The notes under the pieces: model-generated
Seen by the model: only the letters and a program-made list of their open reading frames with translations
The model's database searches: none
Told to the model about the DNA's origin: nothing
Translations under genes and position numbers: made by a program
Shown: piece by piece, positions 48,666-53,935 of the stretch
Numbering within the stretch: position 1 is the stretch's first letter
Layout of the letters: each line of letters starts with the position of its first letter
Sequence record: OQ873415.1
Reading direction: 5' to 3' (one strand)
Length of the DNA: 64,000 nt
DNA from: Escherichia phage PECP20

Positions 48666-49337
48666 ATGGGAGGTAATATGGCAGCACCAAAAGTATCATT
48701 TTCGCCTAGTGATATTTTATTTGGGTTGCTAGACCGCATTTTCAAAGATAACGCCTCTGGAAATATTCTTATTTCAAGAGTTGCTGTTGTAGTTCTTTTG
48801 TTCCTAATGGCACTAATATGGTACAAAGGGAATATTTTTATGGATTATTACGTGAGGTCGAAATATGATACTTACACAGAAGTAATTCAAAAAGAAAGAA
48901 ATACACGATTTGAATCTGCGGCTTTAGAACAACTACAAATAGTCCACGTCACATCAAGGGCGGATTTTAGTTCGGTGTATTCTTTCAGACCTAAAAATCT
49001 AAATTATTTCGTCGACCTTATTGCGTATGAAGGTAAGTTACCTAGCACAGTAACTGAAAAATCTATGGGAGGATTTCCTGTTGATAAAACGACAGCAGAA
49101 TATTCGGTCCATTTAAGTGGACTTCACTTTACTTCTAAAACAGATTTTGCTTTCTTACCTACCAAATCAAAAACTCCGGAACTGGCGTATATGTATAGTT
49201 GTCCTTACTTCAATTTGGATAACATATATGCGGGAACTGTTTCTATGTATTGGTATAAGGGATCGGATGTGCTAAATGAAGAACGCTTGGCTGCAATATG
49301 CAACCAAGCAGCAAGGATATTAGGGCGGGCTAAATAA
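48666..49337 (+). CDS. t: holin T
   Basis: 223 aa; single N-terminal TM (VAVVVLLFLMALIWY) and large periplasmic domain; T4 T-like throughout. Confidence 0.93.
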   Translation: MGGNMAAPKVSFSPSDILFGLLDRIFKDNASGNILISRVAVVVLLFLMALIWYKGNIFMDYYVRSKYDTYTEVIQKERNTRFESAALEQLQIVHVTSRADFSSVYSFRPKNLNYFVDLIAYEGKLPSTVTEKSMGGFPVDKTTAEYSVHLSGLHFTSKTDFAFLPTKSKTPELAYMYSCPYFNLDNIYAGTVSMYWYKGSDVLNEERLAAICNQAARILGRAK

Positions 49338-49610
49338 TTAGTTGTTAGAATACATCGTCAAATGGCGATAAATATTTTCAAAACCTTCATTGAATTCACT
49401 AATCAGTGTTTTCTTTTCTTCGGCAGTTAAATTTGTAATTAGTTTTCTGAACGAATTCTGATTTAGCTGCCGACCATCTTTTTTAATTCCAATCTCATTC
49501 AAGAATCCGATGAAATTTGCTCGGTCTTCAACAATATCTTCCCTAGAGAATTTAATCAAAATAGAAGCAATAGTAATAATTTCACGTACGATTTCAATGT
49601 CTTTATTCAT
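49338..49610 (-). CDS. asiA: AsiA anti-sigma70 factor
   Basis: 90 aa; MNKDIEIVREIITIASILIKFSREDIVEDRANFIGFLNEIG, T4 AsiA-like and same length. Confidence 0.9.
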   Translation of the reverse strand: MNKDIEIVREIITIASILIKFSREDIVEDRANFIGFLNEIGIKKDGRQLNQNSFRKLITNLTAEEKKTLISEFNEGFENIYRHLTMYSNN

Positions 49611-49644
49611 AACGTTTTATTCATTCCACTTAATTGTTAGGAGT

Positions 49645-49674
49645 ATAGTACCATTATCAGTGTTGATTGTAAAC
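49645..49674 (-). promoter_or_regulatory. early promoter for asiA
   Basis: Minus strand GTTTAC (plus 49669-49674), 17 nt, GTACTAT. Confidence 0.45.
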
Positions 49675-49818
49675 GGCTTTTTCTACACTTTTAACGTAAT
49701 CAGTGTAGTCTTCCTGTTCGTACGAGTGTAAGGCCAAGAACGTGGCTAATAGTTCATTATAGACTAAAGCCTCACGCTCACGTTCTGCCTCTACTACGTT
49801 CTGAAGATTATGGCTCAT
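49657..49818 (-). CDS. hypothetical protein (53 aa)
   Basis: ATG at 49818 with SD AAGGA, 1 nt after the upstream stop; the track ORF start is further upstream and overlapping. Confidence 0.4.
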   Translation of the reverse strand: MSHNLQNVVEAEREREALVYNELLATFLALHSYEQEDYTDYVKSVEKAVYNQH

Positions 49819-49819
49819 A

Positions 49820-50107
49820 TCATTCCTTATAACTATCAATGTAGTCCTGTATGTCAAAGAACGACATTTCATATTCTAGGACATTAAGAGCCCGTTCTTC
49901 AGTATAGTCAGAACCAAAGACGATAGTGATTTCACCAGGCTTCATATGATTGAAATCAACGCTAAAAGGAATACGAGAACATACTTCGTCTGCCATATCT
50001 ACGATAACACTACGACACACTTCTCGGTTAACCTGATAAAGCTCTGCAAGTTCTTCACAACGAATAACAAGTTCAGTGGCAGGATTTTCTTTGATTTTAG
50101 TAAACAT
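49820..50107 (-). CDS. hypothetical protein (95 aa)
   Basis: ATG at 50107 with SD AAGGG; the track ORF extends upstream. Confidence 0.45.
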   Translation of the reverse strand: MFTKIKENPATELVIRCEELAELYQVNREVCRSVIVDMADEVCSRIPFSVDFNHMKPGEITIVFGSDYTEERALNVLEYEMSFFDIQDYIDSYKE

Positions 50108-50190
50108 AGTCTTTACCCTTATGTTTTTGTTTACGCTTAGATTGAAGTTCTGATTTCTTCTTGTCCTTATGGACAGAAGCCTTATTGAAA

Positions 50191-50409
50191 TCATGTTTTG
50201 CTACAAGATTGTTCATAATGATTTATAACCTCGTTTAAACATTTGTCTGTGAAAGAAAACTTTTTAGCCACAGAACATTCGATAATGTGCTCTTTCAAAT
50301 CTTTAGAGTCAGTATAACCCATCTCAGTAATAAAGTGGCGAATTAAAGCTTTATTCTTATCATTAACAGAATTAAAATAATCTGCTTTAGAATCAATTAT
50401 TCTCATCAT
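50191..50409 (-). CDS. hypothetical protein (72 aa)
   Basis: ORF in the asiA-motA accessory cluster. Confidence 0.45.
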   Translation of the reverse strand: MMRIIDSKADYFNSVNDKNKALIRHFITEMGYTDSKDLKEHIIECSVAKKFSFTDKCLNEVINHYEQSCSKT

Positions 50410-50674
50410 CTAATTTCCTTAATTGATATTGCAACGAGCTAATAATTTCTTCGTTCATTTTAATATACATGTCACGCAAGAAAGGTTTTAACCCATCACG
50501 AATAATTGCTAACGTATCACCTTTACATAAATTAACCAAATAAGGATGATCTAAAGCGTCCCAACCAGGCTGATTAGCATACATACCATAGTTTTCTTCC
50601 ATCATATGATTAAGACGTTTGATATCTTGGATACGTGATTCAATAGCATCTTTCTGGAGTTGTTTAATATTCAT
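50393..50674 (-). CDS. hypothetical protein (93 aa), acidic C-terminus
   Basis: ORF in the asiA-motA accessory cluster; overlaps its neighbours. Confidence 0.5.
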   Translation of the reverse strand: MNIKQLQKDAIESRIQDIKRLNHMMEENYGMYANQPGWDALDHPYLVNLCKGDTLAIIRDGLKPFLRDMYIKMNEEIISSLQYQLRKLDDENN

Positions 50675-51135
50675 TAATAAAGGTCCTCTGAATAAAGTTC
50701 TTTCTCACTTCCGCCACGTTCAATACGTACCTGTCCAGCATACGTTGCAATAATCATTGCTTCTTCACGTGTCCAGTAATTAGAGTATTGGTCAATAAAG
50801 CCTTGGTCGTCACCACAAACTTGTTGCGAGACTAATTGAGGACCGACTATGTCAAGTACTTCAGCCATATCTTTAGAGTAATGACGAACTCCAGGAATAA
50901 CCAGAGTTCCACCACTCTTCAATTTAAACCTATTAGCTGCACATACTATAACACGTTGAACTTTTTGGTCATTGTTCCAATAGCACGTTTGCCAACAGAT
51001 TTCAGGAACTTCATTCATTATATCATCAGCAGAATAATTATAACCGTAGGACTGGAATTTTTCTGCTAGACTTTCAGGAGTCTCACGAGACAAGGCTAAA
51101 TCTAATAGCTCTAAACGTTCTTTAAATGATTTCAT
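50674..51135 (-). CDS. hypothetical protein (153 aa)
   Basis: ORF in the asiA-motA accessory cluster. Confidence 0.55.
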
Positions 51136-51461
51136 TTAAACCATTCCTTAATACGTTGCCAAATAGATTTTTGTGCTTGTTTATTTACACCAATCGAACG
51201 AATAACCGGTTGTGACTGCTGATATTCTTTATAATCTTCTTTATAGATTTCGTAAGCTGCATCAACAAATGAACTGATCGCTGCCATGTAGTTTTTACGA
51301 AGGCCAAATGGCGCGTCATTATTTTCACGAATAACCGTATATTGGCCTGCTTTAATCTTTACAATTGTCCCTAAATAAGCCCCGTGGTACCAAATATCCC
51401 ATCCTTCCTGAGTAGGTTCTGCACATTTACGAAGTTCGTTAATAATATTCAGCTTATTCAT
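51132..51461 (-). CDS. hypothetical protein (109 aa)
   Basis: ORF coupled (ATGA) upstream of the 153-aa ORF. Confidence 0.55.
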
Positions 51462-51471
51462 TATGTATTCC

Positions 51472-52104
51472 TCACAGTACGTTAGTTACAAGGGTAATGA
51501 TTTCTTTGGACACATTAGGGAAGTCAATGTAAGTATATTTACCACCGATTTTAATCTTAACATCATTTTCAAGAGAAGTAAACAGCTTTGATTCAGTTTC
51601 TGACATGTTGTATGCAAAGATTCTAAGAGCGCCATCTCGTCGAATTTCAATTTGGCGAATGCCTAGAACTCGTTTAGCGAATCGAACTTCTAAGTTACTA
51701 CGGTTTTCACCAATTTCTTTAACTTCAACTTTATCTTTAATATTTTCAAAAACAAAGTTCGCTAGTTCATGCATTTCAGGAGTAACTCCACGTGCTTTTC
51801 TGGTGTTACGTTTCTGGAGAAGTTCTGGAGCATTTTCTTGAGCAAATAGGTCTGCAGCTTTTTGGATAATATCCATTGCTTCGCCGGTTGCCACAAGTCC
51901 ATCACCGGATTTTTCGACTAAACCTTTTTTAATCAATACACCAATGTTAGAGTTAACAACCGATGCATTGTATTCCGCTTTCAGAGCTTCACGGACATTG
52001 GCAGCAGTGGTGAAGTTGTTCTTAATGATATAAACCATTATTGCAGCAGTTTTTTCATTCAGAGCGTTTTCAGAAGCTTTGATGATGTAAGTAACTTTAG
52101 ACAT
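51472..52104 (-). CDS. motA: MotA middle-promoter transcription activator
   Basis: 210 aa; MSKVTYIIKASENALNEKTAAIMVYI...NSNIGVLIKKGLVEKSGDGL, T4 MotA-like. Confidence 0.92.
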   Translation of the reverse strand: MSKVTYIIKASENALNEKTAAIMVYIIKNNFTTAANVREALKAEYNASVVNSNIGVLIKKGLVEKSGDGLVATGEAMDIIQKAADLFAQENAPELLQKRNTRKARGVTPEMHELANFVFENIKDKVEVKEIGENRSNLEVRFAKRVLGIRQIEIRRDGALRIFAYNMSETESKLFTSLENDVKIKIGGKYTYIDFPNVSKEIITLVTNVL

Positions 52105-52140
52105 TTTATTTCTCCAAATTAGTATTTGTTTGATAGGTCT

Positions 52141-52169
52141 ATAATATCATGTTTGAAGCAAAAGTAAAC
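52141..52169 (-). promoter_or_regulatory. early promoter cassette for motA (copy 1 of a tandem pair)
   Basis: Minus strand GTTTAC (plus 52164-52169), 17 nt, TATTAT (plus 52141-52146). Confidence 0.55.
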
Positions 52170-52206
52170 TTTATTTTGGGCTCTTTTTCAAAAGCCCTGG
52201 TAAAAT

Positions 52207-52422
52207 TTACAAACTCATTTCTTTAATAAGGCTAATAAGTTTTGCCTTTTTAGAACGAAGCTTTTCTAAATGATGTCCATTTGAACCGCGAACCACTAAA
52301 GAATTGATTTCAACTTCTAAGAAATTTAATTCTTCAACAAGTGCTTTACGGAGAGCATTCATACCAGGTTTAACTTTACCGAAACGAGTAGTTGTGTTTT
52401 GGGTTAATTTCATTTTAGACAT
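52207..52422 (-). CDS. hypothetical basic protein (71 aa)
   Basis: ORF flanked by the two near-identical promoter cassettes; its start context GACATTTTATTTCTCCAA is duplicated from motA. Confidence 0.5.
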   Translation of the reverse strand: MSKMKLTQNTTTRFGKVKPGMNALRKALVEELNFLEVEINSLVVRGSNGHHLEKLRSKKAKLISLIKEMSL

Positions 52423-52461
52423 TTTATTTCTCCAATTTGGTTGTTTTGTTTTGATAGGTCT

Positions 52462-52490
52462 ATAATATCATGTTTGAAGCACATGTAAAC
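52462..52490 (-). promoter_or_regulatory. early promoter cassette (copy 2 of the tandem pair)
   Basis: Near-identical repeat of 52131-52169 (TGATAGGTCTATAATATCATGTTTGAAGCA...GTAAAC). Confidence 0.55.
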
Positions 52491-52510
52491 TGTTTTGTGA
52501 GAAAAAAATG

Positions 52511-52533
52511 CACAAAAGGGAGCTTCGGCTCCC
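52511..52533 (-). terminator. rho-independent terminator downstream of gene 52
   Basis: Minus strand GGGAGCCGAAGCTCCC then TTTTGTGCATTTTTTT. Confidence 0.6.
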
Positions 52534-52609
52534 TAATCATGTTTGTCCAACCAATACAGCCAAATCACTAGTGCAGCTATTGCACCGAGAAATCCTAAGG
52601 CTAGGGCAC

Positions 52610-53935
52610 TCAAAGTGCCTCCAAGTCTTTAGTGTACTCTGACACAACATCAGTAGACTTCCAATACTCATTTTCTTCTTTCTTAGCTTTAGCTTCTTCT
52701 GCTAGTTTACGTGCTTCGTCAGAAGTGATATGGAAGATGTTAAGACCTACCAATTTATCGATATGTTCTTTATACATTTCGATTTGTGCTAGCTCTTCAG
52801 TCAAAGCTTTACGAGTCTTGCCTTGAATCACAATTTCGCCACTGATAACTTTTTTGATGAAGTGTGCCTTAGCAAAAGCCAGTTTAAATGCTTTTTCAGA
52901 TTCAATGATTTTGTTATCAATACGTTTCTGAACGTAAGTCTTACGGACTTCAACAAAATCTTTGATTAAGTCCACTACGTTATCGTAGACCGTTAATTTA
53001 CCCTTTTCATTAATCACTGTGATGTTTTGTGAACGACGTTCGATGAGACTAAAATCTTTCATGATTTTTTCATGACGTAGCTCTTCATCATCAGGAAGCG
53101 AGTACTCTTTACGGAACTTCACCTTAAACCCAAAACCGTGTTCACCACAATCATCTTCCCATGAGATTAGACCTTTGTCTTCCAACGGGTCAAGAACCTT
53201 ACTCACATACGTTTCACGGTCGAATTTATATGGGATTTCAGTTATCTGCATTTGAGTGCGAGATGTGAACTTATATGTTCCGTGAATCTCATAACGCCCA
53301 TCAACTTCATGCACTTCACCGCGGAATTCCGGGAATTCAACTTTTGGTTTAGTGACATTTTTACCTTGAAGAGCTTGTAATACAGCCTTTTTGACCGATT
53401 TAAAACTATGAGGCAGAATATTTGTTGCGTAACCGGTTGCAATACCAGAGACACCGTTCAAAAGAACTGTCGGAATAATAGGAAGATAGAATTTTGGTGG
53501 AACGTGTTCTTTATCTTCATGAGCTGGAGCATATTCGGTATCTTTATAGACATTATAGAAATTTTTGCTTACACGAGCAAAAATATAACGAGATGCTGCA
53601 GCTTTTTGGACTGTTCGAGAACCAAAGTTGCCTTGACCATCTAATAGTGGATAGTTGTTATTCCATGTGTTAGCCATCAATGCACCTGCATCTTGTGCAG
53701 AAGATTCACCATGGTGATAACCTAAATCTGCAACACCGCCTGCAATTGACGCAAGTTTATGAAATTTTTCTTTATTACCACGAGCCAAATCTAATGCACG
53801 ATGAACCACAAAACGTTGAACCGGCTTAAATCCATCAATCATGTTTGGGATTGCACGGTTTTCAACGGTGTACATAGCATATGCTAAGGCTTCGTTATCA
53901 ATAATACTTTTTAGATTACGAGAATTCAATTGCAT
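52610..53935 (-). CDS. 52: gp52 topoisomerase II medium subunit (GyrA-like)
   Basis: 441 aa; MQLNSRNLKSIIDNEALAYAMYTVENRAIPNMIDGFKPVQRFV, T4 gp52-like; T4 gp52 is 442 aa. Confidence 0.95.
   Translation of the reverse strand: MQLNSRNLKSIIDNEALAYAMYTVENRAIPNMIDGFKPVQRFVVHRALDLARGNKEKFHKLASIAGGVADLGYHHGESSAQDAGALMANTWNNNYPLLDGQGNFGSRTVQKAAASRYIFARVSKNFYNVYKDTEYAPAHEDKEHVPPKFYLPIIPTVLLNGVSGIATGYATNILPHSFKSVKKAVLQALQGKNVTKPKVEFPEFRGEVHEVDGRYEIHGTYKFTSRTQMQITEIPYKFDRETYVSKVLDPLEDKGLISWEDDCGEHGFGFKVKFRKEYSLPDDEELRHEKIMKDFSLIERRSQNITVINEKGKLTVYDNVVDLIKDFVEVRKTYVQKRIDNKIIESEKAFKLAFAKAHFIKKVISGEIVIQGKTRKALTEELAQIEMYKEHIDKLVGLNIFHITSDEARKLAEEAKAKKEENEYWKSTDVVSEYTKDLEAL

Follow-up and report, generated by a model that had tools for sequence, protein, structure and literature searches.

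The small genes between asiA and motA of Escherichia phage PECP20 are an RB69-type allele of the T-even arn operon

What are the small genes packed between asiA and motA in Escherichia phage PECP20, and what might they do for the phage? We addressed this question for positions 49657-51461 of a 64,000-nt stretch of the PECP20 record (OQ873415.1), hereafter called the window. A preliminary description had reported six packed open reading frames (ORFs) on the minus strand between asiA and motA, had likened the place to the arn region of T4, and had treated the ORFs as a cluster without assignable motifs that might serve against host defenses. The six ORFs are indeed present, and the likeness to T4 is borne out, with the locus corresponding to T4 asiA.1, arn and arn.1-arn.4. 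The cluster is not new, however, because RB69 annotates all six ORFs and T4 holds orthologues of four. What occupies positions 49657-51461 is the arn operon of T-even phages in the form found in RB69 and other Mosigvirus members.

The RB69 record (AY303349) names the genes of this locus arn.4, arn.3, arn.2, arn.1, RB69ORF259c (ORF-B below) and RB69ORF258c (ORF-A below), so that the four arn.1-arn.4 genes and two ORFans have stood annotated there since 2003. T4 has arn.4, arn.3, arn.2, arn.1, arn and asiA.1 at the same place. Pairwise BLASTP against the T4 proteins gave 76% identity for Arn.3 (E = 9e-88), 75% for Arn.4 over 67 of the 68 aa of the T4 protein (E = 3e-37), 74% for Arn.1 over 42 of the 43 aa of the T4 protein (E = 4e-22) and 41% for Arn.2 (E = 1e-20); these four are clear orthologues, and nothing in our checks cast doubt on that. 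ORF-A (49657-49818, 53 aa, MSHNLQ...) and T4 AsiA.1 aligned over 40 aa with 32% identity (E = 2e-4, the database comprising nine sequences), and the two proteins have the start MSHNL and the genomic position in common; ORF-A is thus a putative, weak asiA.1 homologue. It is acidic (pI, the isoelectric point, of 4.7) and matches phrog_5245 (E = 5e-31), the alignment beginning at residue 19 of a longer, 71-aa ORF. A guess that the asiA.1-position proteins of Klebsiella and Erwinia phages are DUF2829/Tad2-like found no Pfam support. ORF-B had no sequence match in T4 by pairwise BLASTP. All six listed ORFs match PHROG families (E = 1e-31 to 1e-70) and are therefore conserved genes rather than chance reading frames; we reset the starts of ORF-A (MSHNL) and ORF-B (MFTKIK) from the PHROG alignments.

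Scans of all ORFs against Pfam, NCBIfam and PADLOC returned only asiA, motA, DUF7230 and a segment like the antitoxin CmdA, and a PDB sequence search with Arn.1-Arn.4 and ORF-B gave no meaningful match. PADLOC also gave weak matches for Arn.2 (Hp1, E = 2e-3) and Arn.4 (REase_II, E = 2e-3), which we treated as noise. The earlier statement that no motif could be assigned thus holds for the Pfam and NCBIfam copies that we scanned and fails on two other counts: close homologues of Arn.3 carry Pfam family PF26092, and Arn.3 residues 1-30 match the PADLOC model PD-T4-9_B.

Like the operon of T4 and T2, the PECP20 genes lie between motA and asiA in the same order and on the same strand, and Arn.1-Arn.4 are 41-76% identical. 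Unlike it, the window has a sequence-unrelated version of the arn gene, arn.1 (72 aa) and arn.4 (109 aa) that are full length with ATG starts, and an overlap of arn.2 and arn.1 in place of a 70-nt spacer; it has also not kept the ArcZ pairing site or the RNase E motif known from T2. Only Arn among the T4 genes of this locus is characterized, and its function is anti-restriction, so that the cluster does not reduce to counterparts of T4 genes with established, unrelated roles; arn.1-arn.4 were still called functionally unknown in a June 2026 preprint on T2 (bioRxiv 10.64898/2026.06.19.733364).

Exchange within the operon can be seen in the Tequatrovirus Bas38 (L005 2965-3982), where arn.2 is one residue off that of the window, Arn.1 is identical, and ORF-B and ORF-A are ∼90% identical. 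These window-like genes sit among T4-like arn.3 and arn.4, and the mix shows mosaic exchange by recombination between genera. Bas42 has a 104-aa variant of ORF-B and is without arn.1.

ORF-B (49820-50107) occupies the exact arn position and encodes an acidic protein of 95 aa (pI 4.37, net charge -11), compared to 92 aa (pI 4.55, net charge -9) for T4 Arn. T4 Arn is a DNA-mimic inhibitor of the modification-dependent nuclease McrBC, a dimer with surface charges that imitate DNA, and it also binds H-NS. A template-free AlphaFold2 model of ORF-B had a predicted local distance difference test score (pLDDT) of 86.4. Searched with Foldseek against 350,542 PDB chains, this model had a single match at E ≤ 1e-3, namely 3WX4, the crystal structure of T4 Arn (E = 9e-4, probability 1.00, template-modeling (TM) scores of 0.77/0.75 over 92 columns, 14% identity). 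The next-ranked matches had TM scores of ∼0.33, and none of those listed exceeded 0.5. In the PDB search by sequence, ORF-B drew a match to the PP7 coat protein (E = 4e-4, a total across both repeats of a coat-protein tandem dimer), which we dismissed.

Several observations count against kinship with Arn. The Pfam family DM_Arn (PF22134), which T4 Arn matches at E = 8e-56, was not matched by ORF-B at E ≤ 1, and hhalign gave the ORF-B/Arn comparison a probability of 2.4%. The model was built from seven near-identical sequences, and the PDB on which AlphaFold was trained included 3WX4. A third acidic protein, of 92 aa and pI 4.3, stands at the arn position of Klebsiella phage pKp20. Its identity to Arn is 27% (pairwise E = 1.6e-4), and ORF-B aligns with it collinearly at 19%; as a bridge between the two it works pairwise only and fails at database scale. 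ORF-B and T4 Arn are nevertheless alike in predicted fold, length, acidity and genomic position, and we conclude that ORF-B, as modeled, is a very diverged Arn-fold protein. We infer for it the function of a DNA-mimic decoy.

The two versions of the gene alternate. Among the BASEL T-even phages, the arn position holds T4-type Arn in Bas35, Bas36, Bas37, Bas39, Bas40 and Bas41 and the ORF-B type in Bas38, Bas42 and the Mosigvirus Bas46, and both versions are never found together; the BASEL records label the ORF-B genes "Arn". Close homologues of ORF-B (at least 80% identity) number six among 5.8 billion proteins. At the ORF-B stop codon, TGA (49820-49834), relatives of 99 aa run on with R/Q-Y-E-P/S, and a change of CGA or CAA to TGA strips the window's protein of these last four residues.

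Arn.3 (50674-51135, 153 aa) consists of a CmdA-like N-terminal module, a linker and a core. Its residues 1-30, encoded at 51046-51135, match positions 1-30 of the 77-position PADLOC model PD-T4-9_B with E = 1.9e-7. PD-T4-9 is CmdTAC, in which CmdT is a toxin that ADP-ribosylates mRNA and CmdC is a SecB-like chaperone (PMC9519451, PMC11618068). The antitoxin, CmdA, has two N-terminal helices and a disordered tail, and it folds and neutralizes CmdT (PMC11618068). We recovered a cmdTAC locus of E. coli N2250 by a search with a published primer. In an ungapped alignment that starts at Met1, its CmdA and Arn.3 agree at 16 of 30 residues (53%; BLASTP E = 1e-7), the CmdA head in this alignment being MLSFEQRMALLNKALQQYNPESLYEKLSSY. 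The heads of the proteins from Erwinia phage FBB1 and Klebsiella phage Marfa come closer still to CmdA, with identities of 19/30 and 20/29, respectively. Such values stand out, since CmdA is reported to be "widely variable" from one homologous CmdTAC system to another (PMC9519451).

The AlphaFold2 model of Arn.3 (pLDDT 88) shows helices at residues 4-16 and 20-29, a linker of lower confidence, and a compact alpha/beta core with pLDDT of 92-98. The core, from about residue 45 to residue 153, belongs to Pfam family T4_Y16D (PF26092). This assignment was precomputed for the 98%-identical cluster P0001 and for 118 of the 119 other homologues listed, the model being absent from the Pfam copy that we scanned. 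The core residues AA, RH, QGF.D, R, A and Q are invariant, and a C-terminal L.SE.LY is nearly so. The family is large: a threshold of E ≤ 1e-3 gives 4,630 cluster representatives (clustering at 50% identity), which are mostly stand-alone proteins of 90-110 aa or longer proteins with the domain at the C-terminus behind unrelated N-termini. We found no solved fold relative of T4_Y16D and no Pfam domain in the N-terminal parts of ten long homologues, and the gene neighborhoods of distant homologues offered no clue.

Only about 24 of 120 Arn.3 homologue clusters have the CmdA-like head. One of them, P0004 (203 aa, from a 170.6-kb contig), has two different CmdA-like heads in tandem before one T4_Y16D core. 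Among T-even phages, the head of Arn.3 is 45-77% identical and the core 83-97%, so the head diverges much faster. This modularity, the fast divergence and the duplication fit an interface that determines specificity. Weak Foldseek matches of the Arn.3 model in BFVD (A0A6J5LG11, A0A6J5LI71 and A0A6J5SNR6; E = 3e-3 to 1e-2, 19-26% identity) fall within "large polyvalent proteins" of phages, which are 767-1,354 aa long. Proteins of this class probably bundle counter-defense domains.

How far does the likeness to CmdA go? It is confined to the N-terminal helix pair, i.e. residues 1-30. Arn.3 is phage-encoded, and in place of the disordered chaperone-addiction tail and the C-terminal LAA degron for ClpXP it has the T4_Y16D domain, a folded domain that ends in SEDLY. 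Its neighbors are arn.4 and arn.2, with no CmdT or SecB-like CmdC such as accompany CmdA at the true locus (L004). A parallel in concept is AdfN (T4 gp30.3), a T-even orphan antitoxin-like counter to DarT1, the ADP-ribosyltransferase toxin of DarTG1 (PMC11257639). Both are T-even proteins that derive from, or are related to, the antitoxin of a defense system with an ADP-ribosyltransferase as its toxin, but AdfN, a NADAR enzyme in full, undoes the modification, whereas Arn.3 shares only a short module of the binding type.

If Arn.3 inhibited CmdTAC effectively, its allele should track escape from that system. We took efficiency of plating (EOP) values on the cmdTAC of ECOR22 from the source data of PMC11618068 and compared the arn loci of nine BASEL phages. 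Bas35 (EOP 0.85) and Bas38 (0.32) escape, and Bas36 (5e-6), Bas37 (6e-7), Bas45 (8e-6) and the Mosigvirus Bas46 (3e-5) are restricted. The Arn.3 allele did not correlate with escape, and this outcome weighs against an antitoxin-like role for Arn.3. Bas46 has an Arn.3 that is 100% identical to the window's, yet it is restricted, and therefore the window's Arn.3 does not defeat ECOR22 CmdTAC. Bas36, with 17/30 identity to CmdA, is likewise restricted, and the escapers Bas35 and Bas38 have no distinctive Arn.3 allele in common. Escape mutants of T4 mapped to alt.-3, not arn.3 (PMC11618068). On the same side stand the shortness of the segment common to Arn.3 and CmdA, only 30 residues, and a T4_Y16D core without an assigned role. 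The idea of an antitoxin mimic can now hold only with respect to different variants of CmdT, or in some weaker version, and we regard it as a minority reading that is unlikely to be right.

The explanation that we favor, and hold to be rather probable, is that the RB69-type arn operon acts as a counter-defense and host-takeover cassette. ORF-B would be an Arn-fold protein that, as a DNA-mimic decoy, probably blocks some DNA-binding protein of the host. Arn.3 would join a fast-evolving, CmdA-like two-helix module to a conserved T4_Y16D core that resembles an enzyme or ligand binder. The N-terminus of CmdA is presumably its toxin-binding part, and the module of Arn.3 would most likely dock the protein on a CmdT-type ADP-ribosyltransferase toxin or a related partner, making Arn.3 an orphan-antitoxin-like device without the degradable chaperone-addiction tail. 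The more specific proposal, in which Arn.3 is a stabilized CmdA decoy that lost its tail and had its toxin-binding head fused to a T4_Y16D effector domain, strikes us as improbable. Were this decoy proposal true, the phage could re-neutralize or act on the mRNA ADP-ribosyltransferases of the CmdT family once the host antitoxin is degraded, and the rapid turnover and tandem duplication of heads would be marks of an arms race with CmdA/CmdT pairs, just as variable, in enterobacterial prophages. The suggestion in the preliminary description that this is an anti-defense locus was a reasonable one; one structural homology (ORF-B to Arn) and one sequence homology (the head of Arn.3 to that of CmdA) make the locus credible as such, and we infer a counter-defense role for the cluster.

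Other accounts of these proteins have to be weighed against this one. The N-terminal module of Arn.3 could be a generic two-helix adaptor or oligomerization element that shares ancestry with CmdA, with Arn.3 itself unrelated to CmdTAC; the core would then do nucleotide, RNA or host-takeover work, and the module would merely tether it to a partner from phage or host, possibly a phage ADP-ribosyltransferase that depends on help in folding, in the way that CmdT depends on CmdA. The failure of an identical Arn.3 to protect Bas46 agrees with this, as do the majority of T4_Y16D proteins, in which the module is lacking or the N-termini are unrelated, and the invariant polar residues of the core, which are typical of an active or ligand site. 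On the other hand, 53-69% identity to E. coli CmdA is striking in view of how widely CmdA sequences are reported to vary (PMC9519451), and fast evolution and duplication of the module suit an arms-race interface better than a housekeeping tether. We consider the generic adaptor a serious possibility, though short of an even chance. It is also conceivable that the whole cluster is made up of early genes that the phage can do without, which adjust transcription or physiology in the host and have no part against defense. The genes are apparently co-transcribed with motA and adjoin asiA, and the only defense-related family match is the 30-residue CmdA segment; yet anti-restriction activity is proven for T4 Arn, which occupies the same position, the model of ORF-B shares the fold of T4 Arn, and allelic replacement and rapid divergence of the N-terminal module are typical of anti-defense loci. 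With these points in the balance, host tuning alone seems to us an unlikely account.

For ORF-B, the question is what a DNA mimic of this type would bind. Its target may be something other than McrBC, such as a GmrSD- or BrxU-type nuclease that attacks glycosylated hydroxymethylcytosine (hmC), or H-NS, which would account for two sequence-unrelated versions alternating at the arn position. ORF-B has the predicted fold and the charge of Arn but only 14% identity to it, the versions are mutually exclusive, and ORF-B also occurs in Bas38 and Bas42, which are glucosyl-hmC Tequatroviruses; Mosigviruses carry arabinosyl-hmC (PMC6024577, PMC8594841). Against such a target, the distribution of ORF-B and Arn does not track the type of DNA modification; we regard it as tenable, if somewhat doubtful. 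The preliminary description had instead picked the 93-aa protein at 50393-50674 as the Arn-like acidic mimic. This protein is near Arn in size and ends in DDENN. It is, however, the orthologue of T4 Arn.2, it has no BLASTP alignment to T4 Arn, its net charge is only -3 (pI 5.3), and another gene of the cluster, ORF-B, has the predicted Arn fold, which makes the earlier assignment very improbable indeed. The counter-defense and host-takeover cassette remains the favored explanation, with ORF-B in the place of Arn.

The number of genes in this operon needed revision. Where six had been counted there are seven, the additional one being a 39-aa, lysine-rich ORF (50097-50216) that spans the 83-nt gap between arn.1 and ORF-B. 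It begins MNNLVAKHDFNKASVHKDKKK... (full sequence MNNLVAKHDFNKASVHKDKKKSELQSKRKQKHKGKDYVY), has a pI of 10.1, and overlaps the 3' end of arn.1 by 26 nt and the start of ORF-B by 11 nt. It scores 49.3 bits against the Pfam family DUF7230 (PF23876; cut-off 27, E = 5e-13) and matches phrog_1359 with E = 6e-22. The 83-nt gap is 85-89% identical between the window and T4, though the genes downstream are unrelated. By tblastn, the ORF occurs in 1,412 phage records, in 1,280 of them at near full length, and so in more records than the 2.9-kb stretch around it matches by DNA (727). It is annotated as a coding sequence in Straboviridae of Klebsiella, Aeromonas and Vibrio, between topoisomerase gene 52 and asiA; the asiA neighbor is annotated in Klebsiella phage pKp20 and Aeromonas phage avDM9, and in Vibrio phage V07 only the topoisomerase gene is named. 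T4 and RB69 leave it unannotated. The 39-aa ORF and the core of Arn.3 are members of DUF7230 and T4_Y16D, respectively, two families that have no known function. Conceivably, though we think it improbable, the product of this micro-gene works together with the putative acidic DNA mimic, whose start codon the micro-gene overlaps.

We considered and rejected an ArfA-like role in ribosome rescue for DUF7230 (BLASTP E = 0.79, profile score -0.6 bits). A conserved hairpin, GCUUCUGUCC-AUAA-GGACAAGAAG, lies inside the ORF at 50150-50180; the 96-nt fold around it has a weak z score of -2.3, and its conservation may merely reflect the coding sequence.

Comparison with T4 also bears on where arn.1 and arn.4 begin. 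T4 arn.1 as annotated (43 aa) equals the C-terminal part of the 72-aa Arn.1 (50191-50409; phrog_4452, E = 3e-40), and T4 arn.4 as annotated (68 aa) equals the C-terminal part of the 109-aa, basic Arn.4 (51132-51461; pI 9.2; phrog_1594, E = 2e-52). The 70-nt "intergenic region" between arn.2 and arn.1 of T4 (L003 2007-2076) is open, conserved coding sequence that corresponds to window positions 50323-50409, and the same is true of the 133-nt gap between motA and arn.4 of T4 (L003 3035-3167), which corresponds to 51336-51461. T4 has no ATG at the start of either long gene. The 41 codons upstream of its arn.4 are open but lack an ATG, and ATA stands at the arn.4 start. The N-terminal extension of Arn.1 is open and conserved in both T4 and Bas38; the Bas38 record annotates the short arn.1 despite an intact 72-aa ORF.

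In T2, the mRNA of arn.2 is a target of ArcZ (bioRxiv 10.64898/2026.06.19.733364). T4 has an ArcZ seed site, GGCCAGGGAAAU, at the 3' end of arn.2, with a 12-nt seed and -23 kcal/mol. At the corresponding place in the window (50385-50420, the 3' end of arn.2, which matches phrog_1844), the site is reduced to about 7 bp and -9.4 kcal/mol, and CCACUU stands in place of GCAUU, the proposed RNase E motif that precedes the short arn.1. Because the pairing site is reduced and the RNase E motif changed, the T2 ArcZ mechanism probably does not apply to the arn.2 allele of the window.

The seven genes are arranged, in the order of transcription, as arn.4, arn.3, arn.2, arn.1, the DUF7230 micro-gene, the diverged arn (ORF-B) and the asiA.1-like gene (ORF-A), downstream of motA and upstream of asiA. 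The overlaps are 4 nt for arn.4/arn.3, 1 nt for arn.3/arn.2 and 17 nt for arn.2/arn.1, and the spacing is 1 nt from ORF-B to ORF-A and 10 nt from motA to arn.4. Small genes that overlap or lie so close together are consistent with translational coupling. A consensus scan and motif search placed a candidate promoter, a sigma-70-like site overlapping the MotA-box core TTTTGCTTCA, at 52141-52168 on the minus strand, upstream of motA; within 49300-52700, the sole other MotA-box core is inside asiA. Given the location of that other core and the 10-nt gap between motA and arn.4, the predicted promoter is likely the start of a motA-arn transcript. RNA data for T2 show arn.4-arn.3-arn.2-arn.1-arn as a single transcript (bioRxiv 10.64898/2026.06.19.733364). 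A terminator-like hairpin, with a 12-bp stem followed by a T-run, lies 3' of asiA at 49284-49310 on the minus strand, and Rfam gave no credible RNA family in 49000-53000.

The surroundings are those of an RB69-like Mosigvirus, as judged by DNA comparison of positions 49300-52200. Over this 2.9 kb, identity is 99.7% with the Escherichia phages CCU7 and LF82-4 and 97.8% with RB69, all of them Mosigvirus; 727 phage records match it, 147 over at least 80% of its length. asiA (49338-49610; Pfam AsiA, E = 7e-33) and motA (51472-52104; Pfam MotA_activ, E = 2e-39) border the operon, and the flanking genes include the distal long tail fibre gene 37, gene 38, holin t and topoisomerase gene 52. Between motA and gene 52 lies a 71-aa basic ORF (52207-52422, minus strand; pI 10.4, phrog_6200). 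Direct repeats of about 85 nt (52096-52178 and 52414-52499, 86-93% identical) flank it, and each holds the early promoter and ribosome-binding site of motA together with its opening codons, MSK. The insert of about 320 nt that carries this ORF is missing from RB69 and looks like a promoter-cassette (PeSL-type) gene insertion.

This operon is known and annotated and largely uncharacterized, and the novelty of what we report is moderate. Un- or under-reported are the antitoxin-like module on T4_Y16D, the diverged version of Arn, and the DUF7230 micro-gene. The DUF7230 gene and the coding "intergenic" regions correct the reference annotations of T4 and RB69, and both bear on how the ArcZ/RNase E transcript model of T2 is read. 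An Arn-fold ORF-B in RB69-type phages, as predicted here, would account for an apparent gap in their anti-restriction kit. The arn operon occurs in hundreds of sequenced T4-like phages, with a function known for Arn alone, and a link between Arn.3 and CmdA would extend the orphan-antitoxin idea from an enzyme, exemplified by AdfN, to a binding module.

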